Source of the DNA: Gemmatimonadales bacterium | GTDB lineage: Bacteria; Gemmatimonadota; Gemmatimonadetes; Gemmatimonadales; GWC2-71-9 | Assembly (NCBI GenBank): GCA_039934355.1 | Contig: JBDTMI010000001.1 | Span: 931 to 64,930 of the forward strand | Length of the DNA: 64,000 bases | Direction: 5' to 3' | Shown here: in pieces, positions 108 to 8,794 of the stretch | Numbering within the stretch: the first letter of the stretch is position 1 | Layout of the letters: each line of letters begins with the position of its first letter | Program-made: the position numbers and the translations under genes | Notes under the pieces: model-generated | Database searches by the model: none | What the model saw: the letters and a program-made list of their open reading frames with translations, nothing else | Told to the model about the DNA's origin: nothing

Positions 108-143
108 AATCGGGAAACAAAGCGGCCTCCCCGGAGGGAGGCC
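108..143 (-). terminator. Rho-independent terminator downstream of the porin gene
   Basis: Perfect 8-bp stem GGCCTCCC (124-131) / GGGAGGCC (136-143) with a CGGA loop. On the minus strand it is followed directly by GCTTTGTTT. Confidence 0.55.
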
Positions 144-197
144 ATTTGCACCAGCGAGGAGCGAGCGGCGCATGGCGCCACGCGCCCCGTGCGGGAT

Positions 198-1373
198 TTA
201 GTAGAACAGCATCAGGCCGAATGCCGCCGTGAAGGACTTGTTCTTGCCCGAGGCTTCCTTGTCCTTGGACCAAGCGTAATCGCCTTCGCCCACGACCTTG
301 AGGGACTTGGTCGCCTGGTAATAGACGCCACCGGAGATCAGGCTGTTCTCGGTCTTGAAAGTCTTGGCGTCATCCTTGAGGAAGCTGGAACCGTAGCTGC
401 CCGCGAGGGTCGCCTTACCGGCAGTGTAGGTCAACTGCCCGATGTAGCCGTAGCTGGTCGTCAGCTCGCCACCGATGACCGACGCGCCGCCAGAGATGCC
501 GCCGAACATGAGGGTGGTGCCCAGGCCCTTGCCGAAGTAGCCGGAGCCGGTCAGTGAGAACTGGCTGGCCTTGTAGCCGATGACGGCGGCGCCGCCGACG
601 GCGGTCTTCGAATCATCCGCGACGGGATCCTTGCCGTTCTGGACGGTGCCGCTGACGTTGAACGTGATGCTGCTCGCCTTGAACGTCACGTCGGCCTCGA
701 GGCGCGGCGTGGTGAGTTCGGTATAGGTGCCGAACCTGCTGGGCTCCATCAGGCCAATGTTGAAGCTGGTCGACCGGCCGGCGGGCGAGGAATAGGTGAA
801 CTGCGGCACGAAGTTAGGGTAGATGTAGCCGTAGCCGATGCGGCCGAGGGTCGTTCCGCCGGGAGCGAGCGAACCGCTCAGGTTGTTCGGCCCGCCGACG
901 CCAAAGAGCGTCTGGTCGTTCAGGATGTTGGCACGCTGGTAGACGCCGAGCTCCTTACCCGCGGTGATCGTACCCCAGCTGCCGCCGGCGGTCAGGAACA
1001 CCTGACGCATGTCGATCTGGGCGCCGAAGCAGTCGTGGCTGTTGCTGCCGCACTGCACTTCTGGCGCGAAGCCGAAGTGGGCGCCGAGGTCGGTGTTGCC
1101 TTCCTTGCCGGTTGCGGCGAACGTCGCGAAGGCCGGGAGCAGGCCGGTGCCGTAGTACAGCCCCTTGGTGTCGCCGCCGTTGATCAGGAACTCGCTGGTG
1201 CTGCCGGTGGCGTTGTTGCTTTTGCTGAGCGACTGGTACTGGGCAAAGATGTTGACATTGCCGGCGAACGAGAAGTTCCACCCGTTCGACATCTGCATCG
1301 AGAGACCCTGGGCATTGGCCGCACTGGCCGCGCCCACCAGCAGGGCCGAGAACAAAAGAGCGCTACGCTTCAT
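198..1373 (-). CDS. Porin-like outer-membrane beta-barrel protein
   Basis: Track ORF of 391 aa. Signal peptide MKRSALLFSALLVGAASAANA/Q. Gly/Ser/Thr/aromatic-rich alternating composition. C-terminal ...GLMLFY aromatic terminus typical of OMP barrels. Confidence 0.7.
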   Translation of the reverse strand: MKRSALLFSALLVGAASAANAQGLSMQMSNGWNFSFAGNVNIFAQYQSLSKSNNATGSTSEFLINGGDTKGLYYGTGLLPAFATFAATGKEGNTDLGAHFGFAPEVQCGSNSHDCFGAQIDMRQVFLTAGGSWGTITAGKELGVYQRANILNDQTLFGVGGPNNLSGSLAPGGTTLGRIGYGYIYPNFVPQFTYSSPAGRSTSFNIGLMEPSRFGTYTELTTPRLEADVTFKASSITFNVSGTVQNGKDPVADDSKTAVGGAAVIGYKASQFSLTGSGYFGKGLGTTLMFGGISGGASVIGGELTTSYGYIGQLTYTAGKATLAGSYGSSFLKDDAKTFKTENSLISGGVYYQATKSLKVVGEGDYAWSKDKEASGKNKSFTAAFGLMLFY

Positions 1374-1476
1374 CGGTGCTTCTCCTGACTAGAAGAGGAC
1401 TGAATCCACCTGCCTGCTTCAGAACCACACCTGCTGTAAAGACTGGAGCGTCGTACCAAGGGATTGGGTTCGTCGC

Positions 1477-1866
1477 TCAGGGACCCCGGCCGGGCGGGTG
1501 CCGGAACTGACGGTTCACCTCCCAGATGGCGTACCAGATGGGGAGGACGCGATGGTCCTCATAGAAGTAGTAATCTCCCAATCGGGCTGCATAAACATTC
1601 GGAGCGAACGGGAACGCCAGTCCTGTGGGGACTAGACTGTGCACCCGCTCCACCAGGGCGGCGGAATCCGGTGCGCCAGCAGCGAGTGCCTGTCCCACTG
1701 CGGTCCCGGCGAGGAACCCCGCCAGGTAGGCTTGTCGACTTGCCGGATCAAATTCGGCCCAGGTGTGTCCATCGGCCCGCAGCCACTCCGGTACAGCTAT
1801 CTCCAGTTGCGCCCCTAAGATACCGACTGCCGCCGTGACCGCAACCCAAGATGTTCTAATTGCCAT
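1477..1866 (-). CDS. Hypothetical secreted or membrane-anchored protein
   Basis: In-frame ATG at 1866 (MAIRTSWVAVTAAVGILGA...) inside track ORF 1477..2067. The 67 codons upstream are Arg/Pro-rich and run into the cupredoxin 3' end. No family recognised. Confidence 0.45.
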   Translation of the reverse strand: MAIRTSWVAVTAAVGILGAQLEIAVPEWLRADGHTWAEFDPASRQAYLAGFLAGTAVGQALAAGAPDSAALVERVHSLVPTGLAFPFAPNVYAARLGDYYFYEDHRVLPIWYAIWEVNRQFRHPPGRGP

Positions 1867-2005
1867 TAAAGTACTCGGAATTGAGTGGTTGGAGGCCGAA
1901 TCAGCCCGTGGCGGGGCCGGGAGTGGAGCGGAGCCCGGACCCGAACGAGGCATCCCCTGCGGCCAGCATTCCCGGCCCCATCCGGCTGCCCGTCGTTCCT
2001 CTGAT

Positions 2006-2548
2006 CTAGTCCCTAGGTTTGGGAGTTTCGATGAGCGCCGGGGCCTGGGCCGTCGCGCTGACCGCAAACCGGATCCACATGCCTGACAAACCGTGGCCGG
2101 GCACGCCGCAGAAAATCAGGTAGTCACCGGCCGGCGCTGCCGTGAACTTGAGGATGTCGGTGCCGAACTGGGCGATGCCCTCGCCCGCCTGCTTGCTGTA
2201 GGCCCGGGGGATCGCCGCGTCGCCCGCCATGTTCGGCATGGTGCCACCGCTGTTGATCACCATGGCACTGTGCGGGGTTCCGTCGTCATTGACGAAATTC
2301 ATCACGGTGGTGCTGCCGACCGGGACGACCAGCGTCAGCTCACCATCCGTATACCCGTTGAAGTTGAACGGACTCTTCGCACGGCCAGGAATCCCGGCGA
2401 TCAGCTTGAACTTCGCGGTGTTCGTGCTGGCGTTCCATTCGAGCCAGGTCGGATCCGGGCCGGGCGTCGCCGCGGCGCTCTGGGCCGAAACGACACTCGC
2501 GCTCAGGGCGCTGAGACCAAGGGGCAGGGCGATCATCCAGCGGCGCAT
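2006..2548 (-). CDS. Cupredoxin (type-1 blue copper protein, sulfocyanin/azurin-like)
   Basis: Track ORF 2006..2584; the likely start is ATG at 2548 (MRRWMIALPLGLSALSASVVSAQS signal peptide). The copper-site motif is DDGTPHSAMV ... FCGVPGHGLSGMW, with upstream His and C-x4-H-x4-M spacing as in azurin-type sites. Confidence 0.75.
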   Translation of the reverse strand: MRRWMIALPLGLSALSASVVSAQSAAATPGPDPTWLEWNASTNTAKFKLIAGIPGRAKSPFNFNGYTDGELTLVVPVGSTTVMNFVNDDGTPHSAMVINSGGTMPNMAGDAAIPRAYSKQAGEGIAQFGTDILKFTAAPAGDYLIFCGVPGHGLSGMWIRFAVSATAQAPALIETPKPRD

Positions 2549-2561
2549 GCCATTGCTCCAG

Positions 2562-2607
2562 GAAGAAAAAGGTGACGGGAGCACCCCTCCCGAAGGGGGG
2601 CACTCCC
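2562..2607 (-). promoter_or_regulatory. Intercistronic stem-loop between the PQQ dehydrogenase and cupredoxin genes (possible attenuator or RNA-stability element)
   Basis: Minus-strand RNA is GGGAGUGCCCCCC-UUCG-GGAGGGGUGCUCCC (2607..2577). The two mismatches seen on the plus strand become G-U wobbles on the minus strand. A UUUUUCUU tract follows, but only after a 6-nt gap. Confidence 0.4.
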
Positions 2608-2634
2608 GCCGGTAAAACTAGTGTGACCGCGAAC

Positions 2635-4311
2635 TCAGTGCATCGCTGCCATGTACGGCTTGGGCAGACCGAAGATGAAGACGCCGGCACCCAGCGGATA
2701 GTTGAGCTGGAAATTGCCGCCACAGGCGACACCGATGAACTGCTCGCCCTTGTACTGGAAGCTCATCGGGGCGCTGTTGCAACCGGCGCCGGCGTTGAAC
2801 TGCCACAGCAGCTTGCCGGTGCGCGAGTCGTAGGCGTTGAAGTTGCCGTTGCCCTCGCCAGTGAACGTGAGGCCGCCGGCCGTCGCCAGACCACCACCCA
2901 TCATCGGCTGGGCCACCTTGTTCTGCCAGACGACCTTGCCGGTGGCCAGGTTCAGGGCGGTGTACGTCCCATACTGCTCTTCCCCCGCGATCGCCACGAA
3001 GGCGGAGCCGAGCCAGAGACGCCCCTTCTCGTACGGGCCGGTGTGGGTGATGTAATTCATCGGCTGGTGCAATCCGGCGACAAACGCGTAGTTCAGCTTC
3101 GGGTCCACCGCGATTGGCGACCACTCGGCTCCCCCGTTCGCGCCCGGCAGCATCCGCGTGCCCTCGGCGGTGGGCTGGGCGAATATGTTCTCCTGCGGCG
3201 TGAAGTTCTCCGTGCGGCGGACCAGCTTGCCGGTGGATGCATCGAGGACGTAGACCCACGCGGTCTTGCCGGCATGCACGACGACCTTGCGGCCGCCAAG
3301 CGTGGTGACCACGGGCGGGGAGACCGCGTCTAGGTCCCACACGTCGTGCGGCACCGTCTGGTAATACCACTTGGTCTTGCCGGTCTTCGCGTCGATGCCG
3401 ACGACGCAGTCGGTGTACAGGTTGTCGCCGGGACGAATGCCGCCATCGAGGTCGGGCGAGGGATTGCCCACGGCGACGTAGATCATGCCCAGGTCCTTGT
3501 CATAGGCCGGGGTCATCCACACGCCGCCGCCGCCGCGGGTCCACGCATCGGCGTATTTGGCGCTGTCGGCCTTCTCGGCGGCCACATTGCGGTGCAGGTT
3601 CGCGCCGTCCGCGGTGCTGCCGGGCCACGTGCCCCACCAGCCATTCGGGGCGACCGCATCAAACGTCGGGTCGCCCTTGGGAGCGGGGATCGAATACCAG
3701 CGCCACATCTGTTCGCCGGTCATGGCGTTGTACGCCGTCACGTGGCCGCGAATGCCGTATTCACCGCCCGAGACGCCGATCAGCACCATGTCGTCAATCA
3801 CCAGCGGCGCGGCCGTGATGCTGTAGCCGTAGGCCGGATCCGCGACCTCGATATCCCACGCCACTTCGCCCGTCATCCGATCCAGCGCGACCAGGCGGGC
3901 GTCCATCGTGCCCATGTACACGTGCGGGCCATGCACGGCGACGCCGCGATTGTTCGGGCCACAGCAGGTAATGGTGCTGCCGAGCTTGTGCTCATAGCGC
4001 CAGACCTGCTTGCCGGTGTTCAGGTCGTAGGCGATCGCGGTGTTGAACGGGGTGGTCACGTACACCATGTTGTCTACAACGATTGGTGTGGTCTCGAAGC
4101 TGCCAAGCCGGCTGATGCCGGTCTGGAACACCGTGCGGGGGACCAGGTTGCGCACGTTGGTGGCGTTGATCTGGGTCAGCGTGGAGTACCGCTGGTTCCA
4201 CAGATTGCCACCATACGTGGTCCAATTGGCCTGGGCCGGGAGGTTCGTGGCGCCAGCTCCGATGAGCAGGGCGACGACGGCCCAGTGCGCTCGAATACGC
4301 ATAGGGTACAA
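2635..4311 (-). CDS. PQQ-dependent quinoprotein alcohol/methanol dehydrogenase family enzyme, predicted lanthanide-type
   Basis: Track ORF of 558 aa with a signal peptide. Vicinal disulfide motif TITCCGPNNRG. Metal and PQQ ligand motifs SGGEYGIRG, GGGVWMTPAYD and GNPSPDLDGGIRPGDNLYT. Catalytic region PHDVWDLDAV has Asp at +2 from the catalytic Asp. AGGAG Shine-Dalgarno lies 8 nt upstream of the ATG. Confidence 0.9.
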   Translation of the reverse strand: MYPMRIRAHWAVVALLIGAGATNLPAQANWTTYGGNLWNQRYSTLTQINATNVRNLVPRTVFQTGISRLGSFETTPIVVDNMVYVTTPFNTAIAYDLNTGKQVWRYEHKLGSTITCCGPNNRGVAVHGPHVYMGTMDARLVALDRMTGEVAWDIEVADPAYGYSITAAPLVIDDMVLIGVSGGEYGIRGHVTAYNAMTGEQMWRWYSIPAPKGDPTFDAVAPNGWWGTWPGSTADGANLHRNVAAEKADSAKYADAWTRGGGGVWMTPAYDKDLGMIYVAVGNPSPDLDGGIRPGDNLYTDCVVGIDAKTGKTKWYYQTVPHDVWDLDAVSPPVVTTLGGRKVVVHAGKTAWVYVLDASTGKLVRRTENFTPQENIFAQPTAEGTRMLPGANGGAEWSPIAVDPKLNYAFVAGLHQPMNYITHTGPYEKGRLWLGSAFVAIAGEEQYGTYTALNLATGKVVWQNKVAQPMMGGGLATAGGLTFTGEGNGNFNAYDSRTGKLLWQFNAGAGCNSAPMSFQYKGEQFIGVACGGNFQLNYPLGAGVFIFGLPKPYMAAMH

Positions 4312-4468
4312 CTCCTGAAGTGAGAGAAGACACGGAAGGAACTTCGTACGCCCCCCCGGTCGGGCGGTGGAGAGACAGATCTGTCGCGATCGACGTGGTC
4401 GGGGACAGCCATGTATCAGAGTGCTACCAATATCCCGGGTTGGAAGTTCCCGTCAAGTGGGTTGAGCG

Positions 4469-4609
4469 CTACTTGAACAGGAGCGCCGCCTTCTTTACGG
4501 TCATCAGGACGCCCCACAACATGGGGATTCCCACCCCAAGCCACGCGGCGATCAGAACGACCGGGCTCGTGCCGCGGGCCGATTGGGAGTCCGGCAGGTT
4601 CGGCTTCAT
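4469..4609 (-). CDS. 46-aa single-TM peptide translationally coupled to the MFS transporter (MFS small-subunit-like)
   Basis: Hand translation: MKPNLPDSQSARGTSPVVLIAAWLGVGIPMLWGVLMTVKKAALLFK*. Its ATG (4609..4607) overlaps the MFS TGA (4608..4606) as ATGA. It has a hydrophobic core with flanking basic residues and high GC3. It is below the ORF-track length cutoff. Confidence 0.55.
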   Translation of the reverse strand: MKPNLPDSQSARGTSPVVLIAAWLGVGIPMLWGVLMTVKKAALLFK

Positions 4610-6075
4610 CGGGTCACCTCGATCGGGGATGCCTGCGCCGTGGTCCCGCCCGCGCCAGCCGCGGCTTCGCGGCGCAAATCGTCGTCGGTCATGAAATGCC
4701 GATCCGCCACCGGCCGGACCAGCAGATTACAGAGAAATCCCACCACCAGCAGTCCGGCGAGAATGTACATGGTGGTGTTGTACGCCTCTCCTGCGGCCAG
4801 GCCGCGGGCGAGCTGCCAGTCTCGCAGATAACTGACGATGGCCGGCCCCACCAATCCTGCCGCCGACCAGGCCGTGAGCAGGCGGCCATGAATGGCACCG
4901 ACGAAGGCCGTGCCGAACATGTCTGCTAGGTAGGCCGGAATCGTCGCGAAGCCGCCGCCATACATGGTGAGGATGACGAAGAAGAGCGTCACGAAAAGCG
5001 GTACCGCCCCGGTGCGTCCCGCGAAGGGCACCGTGGCGTACAGCACGGCGCCGAGCGAGAAGAAGATCATGTAGGTTGGCTTGCGCCCGAGCTTGTCCGA
5101 GAGCGACGACCAGCCGATCCGACCGATCAGGCTCGCCAGACTGAGCAGGCCGGTGAATCCAGCGGCGATACTCGCGATGGCGGCCTTCTGCTCGGTCGTG
5201 AGCTCAGCGAGCGTCCCCGTCACTCCGATCAACCGGCCGCCGAAGATTTCCTGGATCATCGGGGAGGCCAGGCTGAGCACGCCGATGCCCGCGGTCACGT
5301 TCGTGAAGAGCACACCCCAGAGGAGCCAGAATTGCGGCAGGCGCCAGGCACGATCCACGTGGACATGGCGGCTGGTCTGCGCCGCTTTCTGGGTGGTCGG
5401 TGGAGTCCAGCCAGCCGGCTTCCATCCCGAAGCAGGAACCCGGTAGCCGAAGGCACCGGCGAGCATCGCGACGAAATAGAGCAGCCCCATCACCGCAAAG
5501 GTCTCCCACACTCCGACCGAGGTGGCCGATGCGAAGTGTTTCATCAGGAGGTCCGCGAGTGGCGCGCCGATCATGGCGCCCCCGCCGAAGCCCATGATGG
5601 CCATCCCCGTCGCGAGGCCCCGCCGATCGGGAAACCACTTGATCAGGGTCGAGACCGGCGAGATGTAACCGAGTCCAAGCCCGCAACCGCCGATCACCCC
5701 GAGGCCGAGCCACAGCAATTGAATGATGTGGAGGCGCACCCCAACCGCGGCGATGAGGAAACCACCGCCCCAGCAGAATGCCGCGACCACCCCGGCCTTG
5801 CGTGGTCCCACCCGCTCGAGCCAACGCCCGAACACTGCCGCCGACGAGCCCAGGAAGAAGATGCCGAGCGCGAACGTGAGGTTGACCTGGGTCAGCGTCC
5901 AGTCGCCCGCGATGGACTGCGTGATGCCCAGCACCTGCGTGAGCGGCTTCCAGAATACGCTCAGGCCATACGCCATTCCGATCGAGAGGTGAATGGCGAG
6001 CGCGGCGGGCGGGAACAGCCACCGGTTGAAGTCGGGGCCGGCAACGGTGCGTTCACGGTCGAGCAGACCGGCCAT
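4606..6075 (-). CDS. MFS transporter, oxalate/formate antiporter (OFA) family
   Basis: Track ORF of 489 aa. N-terminus ...FNRWLFPPAALAIHLSIGMAYGLSVFWKPL is typical of OFA-family MFS. About 12 hydrophobic segments. Confidence 0.85.
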   Translation of the reverse strand: MAGLLDRERTVAGPDFNRWLFPPAALAIHLSIGMAYGLSVFWKPLTQVLGITQSIAGDWTLTQVNLTFALGIFFLGSSAAVFGRWLERVGPRKAGVVAAFCWGGGFLIAAVGVRLHIIQLLWLGLGVIGGCGLGLGYISPVSTLIKWFPDRRGLATGMAIMGFGGGAMIGAPLADLLMKHFASATSVGVWETFAVMGLLYFVAMLAGAFGYRVPASGWKPAGWTPPTTQKAAQTSRHVHVDRAWRLPQFWLLWGVLFTNVTAGIGVLSLASPMIQEIFGGRLIGVTGTLAELTTEQKAAIASIAAGFTGLLSLASLIGRIGWSSLSDKLGRKPTYMIFFSLGAVLYATVPFAGRTGAVPLFVTLFFVILTMYGGGFATIPAYLADMFGTAFVGAIHGRLLTAWSAAGLVGPAIVSYLRDWQLARGLAAGEAYNTTMYILAGLLVVGFLCNLLVRPVADRHFMTDDDLRREAAAGAGGTTAQASPIEVTR

Positions 6076-6178: not shown

Positions 6179-6697
6179 ATGCAGCTGATTCAGCGGGATT
6201 CGCTGCTGGTGCTCACCAGCCTGGTCCTGGCCGGTCCGGCCTCGGCCCAGTCTGCCGCCCTGCCCGCGTGGATGACGGTTGATTCGGCGAGCCATACCAT
6301 CAGCCTCCAACTCAGGGTGGAGTCCGGCGGCCCCGACAGCAGCGCCACGATCAATGGCGCGCGGGCCGGCCGGGTGCAGGTCGTGGTGCCGCGGAACTGG
6401 AGCGTGCGGTGGACGTGGATCAATGCCGACAGCAGTGCCGCGCACAGTCTGGTGCTGATGGCGGAACGTGAGAAACTGCCGCTGCAGGGCGGGCAGCCCG
6501 CACTGGACAACGCCTGGACCCGCGCCGTTGTCACCGGGCTTAAGACCGGTCAGCGCGACCTCACCAGCTTTGTGGCGGACCAGGCCGGCTGGTACTGGCT
6601 CCTCTGTGGGGTGCCGGGACATGCACTCAGCGGGGAGTGGATCGGGCTGAAAGTGGATCGAGACGCCACCGAGCCAAGCGTGGTGGAAAAAATGTGA
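6179..6697 (+). CDS. Cupredoxin paralog with a variant copper site (axial Met replaced by Glu)
   Basis: Internal ATG at 6179 in track ORF 5993..6697 (MQLIQRDSLLVLTSLVLAGPASAQS signal peptide). The motif is DSSAAHSLVL ... LCGVPGHALSGEW. It aligns with the 2006..2548 protein, but SGMW becomes SGEW. Confidence 0.7.
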   Translation: MQLIQRDSLLVLTSLVLAGPASAQSAALPAWMTVDSASHTISLQLRVESGGPDSSATINGARAGRVQVVVPRNWSVRWTWINADSSAAHSLVLMAEREKLPLQGGQPALDNAWTRAVVTGLKTGQRDLTSFVADQAGWYWLLCGVPGHALSGEWIGLKVDRDATEPSVVEKM

Positions 6698-6738
6698 GGA
6701 GTGAGGAGGAAGTACTGCTCCTCACTCCTCACTCCTCC
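6695..6738. terminator. Bidirectional hairpin built from inverted heptamer units, between convergent genes
   Basis: TGAGGAG x2 (6695-6708), spacer GAAGTACTG, then CTCCTCA CTCCTCA CTCCTCC (6718-6738), giving a stem of at least 13 bp. The left arm contains the cupredoxin stop codon and the right arm contains the TlpA-like stop codon. Confidence 0.55.
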
Positions 6739-7895
6739 GTCAACAGCCGCTCGACCACCCGTCGGAACTCCGCCAGCAATGCGGTGTGGGCTGATCCGGT
6801 CACCGCGCCATAAAATCCCGCGTGAATCTGGCGGACCCGACCGTCTCTTCCCAGGAAAACCGTGGTCGGAAACGCGGTAAATCCCACCAGCCCTGGAAGC
6901 AGCGCCTCGACCGTTTCAACGTCGCTGGTACCGCCTAGCAGGAGCGGGAAGGTCAGCCCGAACTTGTCGCGATACCGGCGCACCAGCGGGGCGTCGAACG
7001 TACTGTCGCCGGTAACCTCGAAGGCCAGCCCCACGATCTCCAGCCCGCGGGAATGAAAATCCCGGTACAACTCGGCCAGCAGCGGCGCGGCGTCGTGGCA
7101 CGTCGGACACCAGCTGCCGAAGATGTCCAGCAGGATGACCTTGCCGCGGAACCGCGCATCGGTCGAACGGACGAGTCGCCCCTCGAGGTCGGGGGCGGCA
7201 AAGGCGAAGGGCAGGCTTGAATCGGCGCGGGTCACCTCGGTCGGTGGGGTCAGGTGCCGGCGGCCGCTGCTCCGCACGGCCACGAACGGCGTCTGACTGC
7301 GCAGGCCGGCGTGGAAGATACCCCGCAGCGTGTCGCCGTCGAGTTGGGCGGTGAGCAGGTAAACGAATGAGCCGTCGAAGTGCCCCAGCCGGATGGTGTC
7401 GCCCGCCATCTCCCCGGCGAACCGGCCGTAGTCACCCGAATTGCTGATGACGGTACCCTCGAGGCCGCTCGGTACGTTCTCGATCAGGAGCACGCGTGGG
7501 GTGGCGTCGAATCCGCTCTGGAACCAGGCATCCCAGCGGCCGACCAGCGCGATCGGGGCGACGGCATGCGGGGGCGTGCCGCGCGCGGCACGGAAGGGAA
7601 TCGTCCGGGGACCTCGTCGCCCGACATTGTGGTAGCGACCCACGAGGGAATCGCCCCGTTGCACCGCAGCGATGGAGGCGGCGTAATCCGCCAGCTCAAA
7701 GACGAGGCTGTCCCCTGCCTGCCGGACGCTTGTGAATGGCTGGCATTCCACCCCACTGCACAGCTGCCCGGTCCACCGGCCGCTCGAACCGGCGACCTGC
7801 AGCACAAAGGGCAGCGGCCCTCCGGCGAGATCCAGCGTGGCGCGCCAGGAGCCTGCAGGATTGCCCGGTCCTCGGCTGGTATCGTCGTGCCGCAT
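6729..7895 (-). CDS. TlpA/ResA-like thioredoxin-fold thiol-disulfide oxidoreductase with a large N-terminal domain
   Basis: Track ORF of 388 aa. The C-terminal redoxin domain carries GKVILLDIFGSWCPTCHDAAP (a CxxC motif). The start is uncertain; see the finding on the hidden hydrophobic extension. Confidence 0.75.
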   Translation of the reverse strand: MRHDDTSRGPGNPAGSWRATLDLAGGPLPFVLQVAGSSGRWTGQLCSGVECQPFTSVRQAGDSLVFELADYAASIAAVQRGDSLVGRYHNVGRRGPRTIPFRAARGTPPHAVAPIALVGRWDAWFQSGFDATPRVLLIENVPSGLEGTVISNSGDYGRFAGEMAGDTIRLGHFDGSFVYLLTAQLDGDTLRGIFHAGLRSQTPFVAVRSSGRRHLTPPTEVTRADSSLPFAFAAPDLEGRLVRSTDARFRGKVILLDIFGSWCPTCHDAAPLLAELYRDFHSRGLEIVGLAFEVTGDSTFDAPLVRRYRDKFGLTFPLLLGGTSDVETVEALLPGLVGFTAFPTTVFLGRDGRVRQIHAGFYGAVTGSAHTALLAEFRRVVERLLTEE

Positions 7896-7936: not shown

Positions 7937-8794
7937 TCAGGGTGCGCTGCGTGGCTCGCCTCCGTGGTACTGCTCACCGGCCTCGACTGAAAAGGGAATT
8001 GTGTTGCCCGGCCAGGGTGCGGGACAAGGAAAGGCGGAGGAGTAGGCGCAGAAGGGATTGCGGGCCCGGTTGAAGTCGAGACGATATCGCTCGCTGCCGG
8101 CCGGGGTCAGCGTCACGAATCGTCCGGCGGGGTAGCTGCCGTGGCCACTGGTGCTGTCGCGAAAATAAATCAGCAGCTCCGTCTCATCCGCTTCATCGCC
8201 GGGGACACGGTATACCCGCAACCGCGTGCTCCCGCCCGCCCGCGCAACCTGGATGAACCCAGCCTCATGGGCCTCGACGTCGGTGCCATCGGGACCGAGG
8301 ATGCGGAAGGCCTCGCGTCGTCCGCCCGGTTGCAGCGTCAGCGTGAGATCGAATCCTGGCGCCGGAGGAAACCAGGTGGGCGGTGCGAATCCTCTCACTG
8401 CGCCGAACGCCGCGATCACGCTGCGTCCCGGGAGACCGCTCGCGATCAGCGTGAAGGCGCCAACCGGTACCGGTCGTCCGCGAGGCAGGACCACCCGGTT
8501 GCTGTCTCGGCGAAATACCACGACCGTGCCCTCCTCACGGGCCATCCCGCGTCCGATGCCTGGCAGGGGAATATCGGACGGTTCCCTCCCGATACTGATG
8601 CCATCGCCAACGGGCTGGATGCGGAGGAGCGCAAACGGGGAGAGCGGGGCGGTCGCGAGCCATGCGGCGTACTCGTGGCGTTCACGTTCGAGGTCGTCGC
8701 CCTGCTGTGCGGCCATCGACGACAAAGGGCAGCTCGCCAGCACCAGCATGGTGACCCACCGGTGTCCCAGGCGTCCGCCTGTCACCTGCGTCAT
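7937..8794 (-). CDS. DUF1684 family protein
   Basis: C-terminal signature FRDSTSGHGSYPAGRFVTL...YRLDFNRARNPFCAYSSAFPCPAPWPGNTIPFSVEAGE matches the DUF1684 pattern as I recall it. Confidence 0.7.
   Translation of the reverse strand: MTQVTGGRLGHRWVTMLVLASCPLSSMAAQQGDDLERERHEYAAWLATAPLSPFALLRIQPVGDGISIGREPSDIPLPGIGRGMAREEGTVVVFRRDSNRVVLPRGRPVPVGAFTLIASGLPGRSVIAAFGAVRGFAPPTWFPPAPGFDLTLTLQPGGRREAFRILGPDGTDVEAHEAGFIQVARAGGSTRLRVYRVPGDEADETELLIYFRDSTSGHGSYPAGRFVTLTPAGSERYRLDFNRARNPFCAYSSAFPCPAPWPGNTIPFSVEAGEQYHGGEPRSAP

Follow-up and report, generated by a model that had tools for sequence, protein, structure and literature searches.

We analyzed a 64-kb stretch of DNA from a soil bacterium of the Gemmatimonadales (the window), which covers positions 931-64930 of contig C1 in a genome of 4.06 Mb and 139 contigs. 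The subject of this analysis is a gene for a pyrroloquinoline quinone (PQQ)-dependent alcohol dehydrogenase of 558 amino acids (2635..4311, minus strand) and the gene that follows it, which encodes a secreted sulfocyanin-like cupredoxin of 180 amino acids that we call cup1 (2006..2548, minus strand). Within the first 6 kb of the window, the minus strand encodes, in the order of transcription, a major facilitator superfamily (MFS) transporter, the PQQ dehydrogenase, cup1, a 129-residue protein, and a 391-residue porin, and all five products have N termini that resemble signal peptides. Gene calls and family and fold matches agree with the initial annotation of this DNA, which had described a dehydrogenase gene followed in the same orientation by a cupredoxin, a small hypothetical protein, and a porin. 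That description had missed a second cupredoxin gene, cup2, located just past the transporter on the plus strand (6179-6697).

The dehydrogenase passes the family cut-off of PF01011 (282.9 bits, cut-off 26.7; E = 8e-84) and falls just under that of TIGR03075, the model of the methanol/ethanol dehydrogenase family (446.4 bits, cut-off 480). Its nearest solved relatives are PedH (PDB entry 6ZCV), ExaA (1FLG), and XoxF (6DAM), each scoring about 270 bits in alignments that are about 88% complete and low in identity. When the sequence is aligned with PedH, the vicinal Cys-Cys pair (TCCGPNNRG), the metal ligands Glu (GGEYG) and Asn (GNPSP), and the catalytic Asp (WDLD) all find their counterparts. 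The D-x-D signature of lanthanide-type enzymes is also present, with W-D-L-D of the dehydrogenase aligning to W-D-F-D of PedH. By motif, the metal site is thus of the lanthanide type, which suggests that the enzyme would use a lanthanide. The protein probably starts at the ATG at position 4302 and carries a Sec signal with a predicted cleavage site after AQA; further along, it contains an insert that is specific to its clade (WWG.W...LHR..A.EKADSAKYADAW). The 558-residue chain has neither a haem domain nor a CxxCH motif, and it lacks the C-terminal cytochrome c domain that characterizes the type II quinohaemoproteins. On contig C46, both pqqC and pqqE exceed their curated cut-offs, indicating that the genome makes PQQ.

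Cup1 matches the SoxE domain family PF06525 with 70.8 bits (cut-off 21; E = 1e-19). It scores 67.4 bits against the sulfocyanin equivalog TIGR03094, for which the cut-off is 168.4, and is therefore a member of the wider SoxE domain family rather than a sulfocyanin equivalog. We placed its start at Met13 of a longer open reading frame (ORF; 2006-2584) because the homologues are 178-185 amino acids long. His93, Cys147, and His152 are invariant in the homologue alignment, and Met157 is nearly so, being present in all rows of the cup1 type; the resulting C-x4-H-x4-M loop was found in 120 of 120 close homologues. The AlphaFold2 (AF2) model of cup1, with a predicted local distance difference test score (pLDDT) of 87.6, is a cupredoxin sandwich whose best fold matches are rusticyanin and auracyanin. 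Rusticyanin is also the nearest solved protein by sequence (E = 8e-4), and the ligands of the two proteins align. Together, the aligned His-Cys-His-Met set and the modeled cupredoxin fold are those expected of a type-1 copper protein.

A CxxCH scan of the ORFs revealed no credible gene for a c-type cytochrome in the whole 64-kb window, in agreement with the initial annotation. Among the ORFs that are GC-rich at third codon positions, two contain the motif: a doubtful ORF of 159 amino acids and a thioredoxin-like gene. The latter was rejected as a cytochrome, since its CxxCH is a CPTC redox motif followed by a His.

Conservation of the gene pair

Within the genus, the entire locus is syntenic in the 14 genomes examined (14/14), with the order DUF1684 gene, thioredoxin-like gene, cup2 (divergent), transporter, dehydrogenase, cup1, small protein, and porin. 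The best 80 species-level cup1 loci, taken from 185,579 species genomes, all belong to Gemmatimonadales, and about 40 of them have the dehydrogenase directly upstream. We then turned to an even sample of 301 Gemmatimonadota genomes, in which the dehydrogenase clade was defined at E ≤ 1e-170. The clade was present in 63 of these genomes and the cupredoxin family in 114. The two largely coincide, as 61 of the 63 genomes with the dehydrogenase clade also have the cupredoxin family, and every such genome of families f1 and f2 has a cupredoxin. A comparison of coordinates placed the two genes next to each other in 31 of the 63 genomes, spread over 17 genera and two families; a search for this pairing in other genomes, proposed in the initial annotation as a check, thus came out in favor of the pair.

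Several arrangements indicate that the adjacency is not merely inherited synteny. Members of f2 (G268 and G296) have the reverse order, with the cupredoxin before the dehydrogenase and unrelated genes on the flanks; the pair stands alone in G098; and the transporter is missing from the loci of g48, g33, and g35. In a phylogenetic tree of the cupredoxins, the genes that are not linked to a dehydrogenase form one clade (support 100/99) nested among the adjacent ones, which suggests, in a tree that was midpoint-rooted and whose bootstrap had not settled, an ancestral adjacency followed by a single loss.

The sister enzymes of the dehydrogenase offer a view of what else can occupy the place of cup1. 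At about 50% identity (G191 and G223), a gene for a 189-residue monohaem cytochrome c lies directly downstream of the dehydrogenase and is followed by xoxF-xoxJ-xoxG. The cupredoxin therefore occupies the position that the cytochrome holds in these relatives. Members of f2 with about 60% identity have the order dehydrogenase, small protein, and porin, and then xoxF-xoxJ-xoxG. A dehydrogenase of the same clade in G183 (L057:7668-11496, G183:C140; 59-62% identity) is followed by the CuA subunit II and subunit I of a haem-copper oxidase, with no carrier gene between.

The genome of the window also encodes a paralogue of the dehydrogenase on contig C39. It is 73% identical, and here too a SoxE cupredoxin gene follows, with a TTHB210-like and a plastocyanin-type protein encoded in between. 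The complete arrangement at that site (C39:11855-17033; L030:5856-11034) comprises a LuxR-type regulator, the PQQ dehydrogenase, the TTHB210-like protein, the plastocyanin-type protein with a twin-arginine translocation signal, the SoxE cupredoxin, and a Rieske protein plus a flavin adenine dinucleotide-dependent reductase. The three small genes of this site also occur in G183 without the dehydrogenase.

Fusions of the dehydrogenase and copper domains

The cupredoxin profile was searched against 1.84 billion representative proteins, and the long matches were typed by Pfam. Three complete proteins, P0305 (741 amino acids), P0316 (752 amino acids), and P0389 (738 amino acids), and the partial P0361 combine a PQQ dehydrogenase and a C-terminal SoxE domain in one chain. 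The order of the domains equals the order of the genes in the window, dehydrogenase and then cupredoxin. The propeller of P0305 is 47% identical to the window dehydrogenase and shares its clade-specific insert; between the copper domain of P0305 and cup1, the identity is 36%. No second cupredoxin copy besides the fused one was found in the genome that encodes P0305. Of the best 120 homologues of P0305, 67 have both domains, and those that are named are labeled Gemmatimonadaceae or Gemmatimonadetes. The C-x4-H-x4-M loop is kept in all fused homologues of at least 700 amino acids (63/63), and D-x-D is kept in all of the fused proteins picked out by a motif search (16/16). On a tree of the dehydrogenase domain, the fused state needs five changes, suggesting that the fusion arose several times independently.

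We considered whether the fusions could be artefacts of gene calling or assembly and rejected this explanation. Four independent samples, an NCBI genome and three run assemblies, yield the identical P0305 sequence, and the architecture recurs in dozens of distinct clusters. A search for fused enzymes in a plasmid collection returned proteobacterial homologues with an identity of about 44%, all of them unfused. P0389 (L161:5001-7217) is a very divergent fused propeller::SoxE protein with a Gln at the axial position (CGVPGHAASGQW), and sugar ABC transporter genes lie nearby.

A fusion of another kind was found in P0378 (790 amino acids; L162:5001-7373), in which a SoxE domain is followed by a long low-complexity linker, a COX2 domain, and cytochrome c. 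Its gene heads a caa3 oxidase operon. The SoxE loop of this protein reads C-x4-H-x4-His, and the protein was found in two Joint Genome Institute (JGI) samples. In the genome of the window, there is a single subunit II with a CuA motif, and it too has a fused cytochrome c domain.

Companion genes and transcription signals

The porin gene (198..1373, minus strand) encodes 391 amino acids with a signal peptide and the C-terminal residues LMLFY, and families f1 and f2 have retained it downstream of the dehydrogenase. The protein has no Pfam match and no sequence match in the PDB. Its AF2 model consists of beta hairpins and is of moderate confidence (pLDDT 64.7), with best fold matches to DcaP, OmpT, Omp32, PorB, and OmpF (Foldseek E = 1e-15 to 1e-10, TM-score up to 0.70). 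The modeled barrel, the signal peptide, and the aromatic C terminus are those of a general porin of the 16-strand type, as far as a model of this confidence allows. Among these matches, DcaP is a dicarboxylate channel and Omp32 is selective for anions, which hints, again through the moderate-confidence model, that the porin may favor small organic acids over alcohols.

The conserved 129-residue protein (1477..1866, minus strand) is predicted to be exported or anchored. It matches no Pfam family, and a sequence search of the PDB gave nothing useful. In most of the f1 and f2 loci examined, its gene lies between the dehydrogenase (or the cupredoxin) and the porin, and it keeps the same slot where cup1 is absent. 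The orthologues share the motifs Y(L/V)xGFLAG and NVYxxR(I/L)xDYY...P(I/L)WYA(I/F)WEVN. The invariant core of the locus consists of the dehydrogenase, the 129-residue protein, and the porin. The self-contained module of porin, dehydrogenase, and cupredoxin that had been proposed initially is therefore retained in part: the dehydrogenase and the porin belong to the core, whereas cup1 lies elsewhere in genus g14, its family also occurs without the dehydrogenase, and the genome has a separate xoxF-xoxJ-xoxG-like cluster.

Upstream of the dehydrogenase lies the gene for the transporter, an MFS protein of 489 amino acids and of the OFA/monocarboxylate type (4606..6075, minus strand). It had been assigned to the OFA family; an MFS transporter is indeed present at this place, but the oxalate/formate models score poorly (TIGR00890, 137 bits against a cut-off of 375; TIGR04259, 109 against 335). 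The best NCBIfam model is that of the L-lactate transporter SfMCT (NF049980, 301.7 bits, cut-off 320), and MFS_1 matches as well. The gene is present in g1, g14, and g17 and absent from the loci of g48, g33, g35, g13, and f2. That the transporter handles the acid product of the dehydrogenase is speculation.

Divergent from the transporter, cup2 (6179..6697, plus strand) encodes a second cupredoxin of the SoxE type (PF06525, 59 bits) with an axial Glu instead of Met. Every orthologue whose loop is intact has this Glu (27 of 27, from several genera), and the Cys ligand was lost in two orthologues. In g14, cup2 remains beside the dehydrogenase locus from which cup1 has moved away. Cup2, the 129-residue protein, and the transporter are conserved companions of the pair. 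Beyond cup2 lie the genes for a 388-residue protein with a C-terminal TlpA/ResA-like thioredoxin domain (6729-7895, minus strand) and for a DUF1684 protein (7937-8794, minus strand). Both are syntenic with the locus across g1, g14, and g17, and a role of the two in copper-protein maturation is conceivable.

A terminator scan and RNA folding placed a hairpin between the dehydrogenase and cup1 (2574..2610, minus strand), with a GC-rich stem followed by a U-rich tract. This stem and its U tract are found again at over 20 orthologous loci, where both arms of the stem have undergone changes. To judge from its sequence, the element is similar to an intrinsic terminator or an attenuator, and it may provide for a high ratio of enzyme to carrier, separate the two transcripts, or serve to attenuate transcription or stabilize the mRNA. 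A stronger terminator-like hairpin lies just 3' of the porin gene (123..144, minus strand; a stem of nine pairs, seven of them G-C, with a T-rich tail) and probably ends the transcription unit. The sole promoter-like site in the 7 kb scanned is of the sigma-70 type and precedes the dehydrogenase by about 120 bp (4429..4456, minus strand); such matches occur no more often than in shuffled sequence, and we regard the site as weak.

Electron exit from the dehydrogenase

The initial annotation had proposed that a cupredoxin replaces the cytochrome as the electron acceptor of the dehydrogenase. The comparative data support this idea well: the two genes are neighbors in more than one order and in various contexts, they co-occur almost completely, and they have been fused repeatedly. 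On this genomic evidence, cup1 is probably a physiological acceptor of the enzyme. The locus would then encode a system for alcohol oxidation in the periplasm that has no cytochrome c. The substrate alcohol would enter through the dedicated porin and be oxidized by the PQQ dehydrogenase with its lanthanide-type metal site. Reduced PQQ would then hand its two electrons singly to secreted cup1, a step suggested by the gene linkage and the natural fusions, and cup1 would take the role that cytochrome cL, XoxG, or c550 has for the studied enzymes. From reduced cup1, the electrons would pass to the single CuA oxidase of the cell, of the caa3 type, whose subunit II has its own cytochrome c domain. 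We consider this oxidase the most likely sink because a fusion of a cupredoxin to subunit II exists in another organism (P0378).

A number of observations weigh against cup1 as the acceptor. Three positions of the PQQ pocket differ from MxaF and PedH in the PedH alignment (Arg to Lys, Asn to Glu, and Trp to Met), with Lys in place of the Arg next to PQQ. The conserved hairpin between the two genes weakens the view of a single operon, in that the dehydrogenase and cup1 are perhaps not strictly co-transcribed. Much of the adjacency falls within one family, and shared descent could explain part of it. In genus g14 (about 18 genomes), the locus consists of the dehydrogenase, the small protein, and the porin without cup1, and the cup1-type gene adjoins uvrA. 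The cupredoxin family probably has at least one other partner, since it is present in 14 genomes of f1 and f2 and in 39 genomes of f6, f7, and f9 that are without the dehydrogenase clade. The link to the transporter is lineage-specific, and many loci keep the dehydrogenase-cup1 pair without it. Finally, the genome encodes an XoxG-like monohaem protein on contig C6, in a xoxF-xoxJ-xoxG-like cluster, and a dihaem protein on contig C90, and these cytochromes could take the role of acceptor instead.

The occurrence of the cupredoxin family in genomes without the dehydrogenase clade is one basis of an alternative explanation, in which cup1 is a general periplasmic respiratory carrier, for instance from a quinol-oxidizing complex to either the caa3 oxidase or a copper reductase, standing beside the dehydrogenase by descent and receiving no electrons from it directly. 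Such a carrier would fit the solo copies that adjoin uvrA, a peptidase, and other housekeeping genes, the finding that most genomes have one cup1-type gene, linked or not, and the existence of a cupredoxin::COX2 fusion. It would leave unexplained why a domain of the cup1 type was fused to the dehydrogenase repeatedly and independently, why the only cupredoxin copy in the P0305 genome is the fused one, why adjacency is kept in both gene orders and between unrelated flanks, and why every f1 or f2 genome with the dehydrogenase has a cupredoxin. We regard this explanation as unlikely. Its central element is compatible with cup1 as the acceptor, since a general carrier can also accept electrons from the dehydrogenase, and cup1 is not necessarily exclusive to the enzyme and may have a general carrier role too.

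A second alternative assigns the role of acceptor to a c-type cytochrome encoded elsewhere, either the XoxG-like protein on C6 or the dihaem protein on C90, and leaves cup1 to other duties, for instance in copper handling or with another enzyme. In line with this, other PQQ dehydrogenases of the genome adjoin a xoxF-xoxJ-xoxG-like set or a dihaem cytochrome gene, cytochrome c or xoxFJG genes lie beside the sister enzymes at 50-62% identity, and the hairpin at 2574-2610 suggests some transcriptional separation of cup1 from the dehydrogenase. However, the XoxJ/XoxG-like pair on C6 and the dihaem cytochrome on C90 each adjoin another PQQ dehydrogenase, and the 64-kb window contains no cytochrome gene. 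Cup1 itself has a full copper site of the redox type and not a chaperone motif, and the fusions put the copper domain where the type II enzymes have their haem domain. With these points taken together, we find a remote cytochrome quite improbable as the acceptor.

That the Glu-ligated cup2 is the primary acceptor, with cup1 further down the chain or uninvolved, seems very improbable: cup2 does stay by the dehydrogenase locus in g14, and its axial Glu, kept in 27/27 orthologues, is expected to lower the potential of a cupredoxin toward that of PQQ, but all 63 fused enzymes have the Met-type, cup1-like loop, cup2 is divergently transcribed and missing from those loci of f2, g13, g19, and g22 in which the pair is retained, and two of its orthologues have lost the Cys ligand.

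With cup1 as the probable acceptor, a wider proposal can be formulated. Soil Gemmatimonadota might possess a periplasmic chain for alcohol oxidation that can do without a soluble cytochrome c. In it, a lanthanide-type PQQ dehydrogenase would pass electrons from PQQ directly to type-1 copper, on a separate protein or a fused domain, and the conserved Glu-ligated cup2 would be the partner of low potential where two copper proteins relay electrons to the caa3 oxidase. The enzymes would then form a new class of quinoprotein dehydrogenases, "quino-cuproproteins", in bacteria that are uncultured and very abundant. We put this forward tentatively, as a possibility that goes well beyond the assignment of cup1 as the acceptor.

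The studied enzymes XoxF, MxaF, ExaA, and PedH use c-type cytochromes, and many enzymes of the kind described here are annotated "alcohol dehydrogenase (cytochrome c)". Surveys of XoxF3 in Gemmatimonadetes report XoxG (PMC10875860), and a 2026 preprint on the diversity of PQQ enzymes discusses cytochromes only (bioRxiv 10.64898/2026.07.10.737718). In the open-access literature searched, we found no description of a haem-free PQQ dehydrogenase paired with or fused to a cupredoxin of the SoxE type. In soil metaproteomes, few enzymes are as abundant as PQQ alcohol and methanol dehydrogenases of this kind, including those of Gemmatimonadetes (PMC5103831). An electron exit through copper, if true, would change their annotation, the models of their energy yield, and the way in which the demands for lanthanides and copper are connected in soil carbon turnover. 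The natural fusions offer a ready single-chain system for electron transfer from PQQ to copper, and they may be useful in bioelectrocatalysis, where the haem-containing type II enzymes now serve (PMC8348568).

Among the characterized systems, the window dehydrogenase shares with PedH, ExaA, and ExaF, whose partner is cytochrome c550 (PedF/ExaB), and with XoxF, whose partner is XoxG, an eight-bladed periplasmic PQQ propeller with the vicinal Cys pair and with Glu and Asn as metal ligands. Its D-x-D, made up of the catalytic and a second Asp, matches that of the lanthanide enzymes. Unlike PedH, ExaA, and XoxF, it has a type-1 copper protein where the gene for the cytochrome would be, a clade-specific insert, and a dedicated porin and small protein.

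Transfer of electrons from a quinoprotein to a cupredoxin has a precedent in methylamine dehydrogenase. This periplasmic enzyme has amicyanin, a cupredoxin encoded beside it, as its dedicated first acceptor. The neighboring cupredoxin gene is a feature that it shares with the window dehydrogenase. The two systems differ in the cofactor, which is tryptophan tryptophylquinone (TTQ) rather than PQQ in methylamine dehydrogenase, and in the unrelated fold of the enzyme; amicyanin, moreover, belongs to another cupredoxin subfamily and passes its electrons to cytochrome c.

Another parallel is provided by the type II quinohaemoprotein alcohol dehydrogenases (ADH IIB and IIG; PDB entries 1KV9 and 1YIQ), for which azurin is the natural acceptor, placed after the haem domain (PMC8348568). 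These too are PQQ alcohol dehydrogenases that reduce a blue copper protein, and the fused relatives of the window dehydrogenase share their layout with a C-terminal carrier domain. In the type II enzymes, haem c stands between PQQ and azurin, whereas in the haem-free proteins described here the copper protein or domain would face PQQ directly.

On the side of the carrier, cup1 resembles sulfocyanin (SoxE of the Sulfolobus SoxM complex), rusticyanin, and auracyanin in its SoxE Pfam family and its C-x4-H-x4-M loop. Those three proteins connect respiratory complexes to terminal oxidases. Cup1 differs from sulfocyanin in being bacterial, in having a cleavable signal in place of a membrane anchor, and in its linkage to a quinoprotein instead of a bc-type complex.

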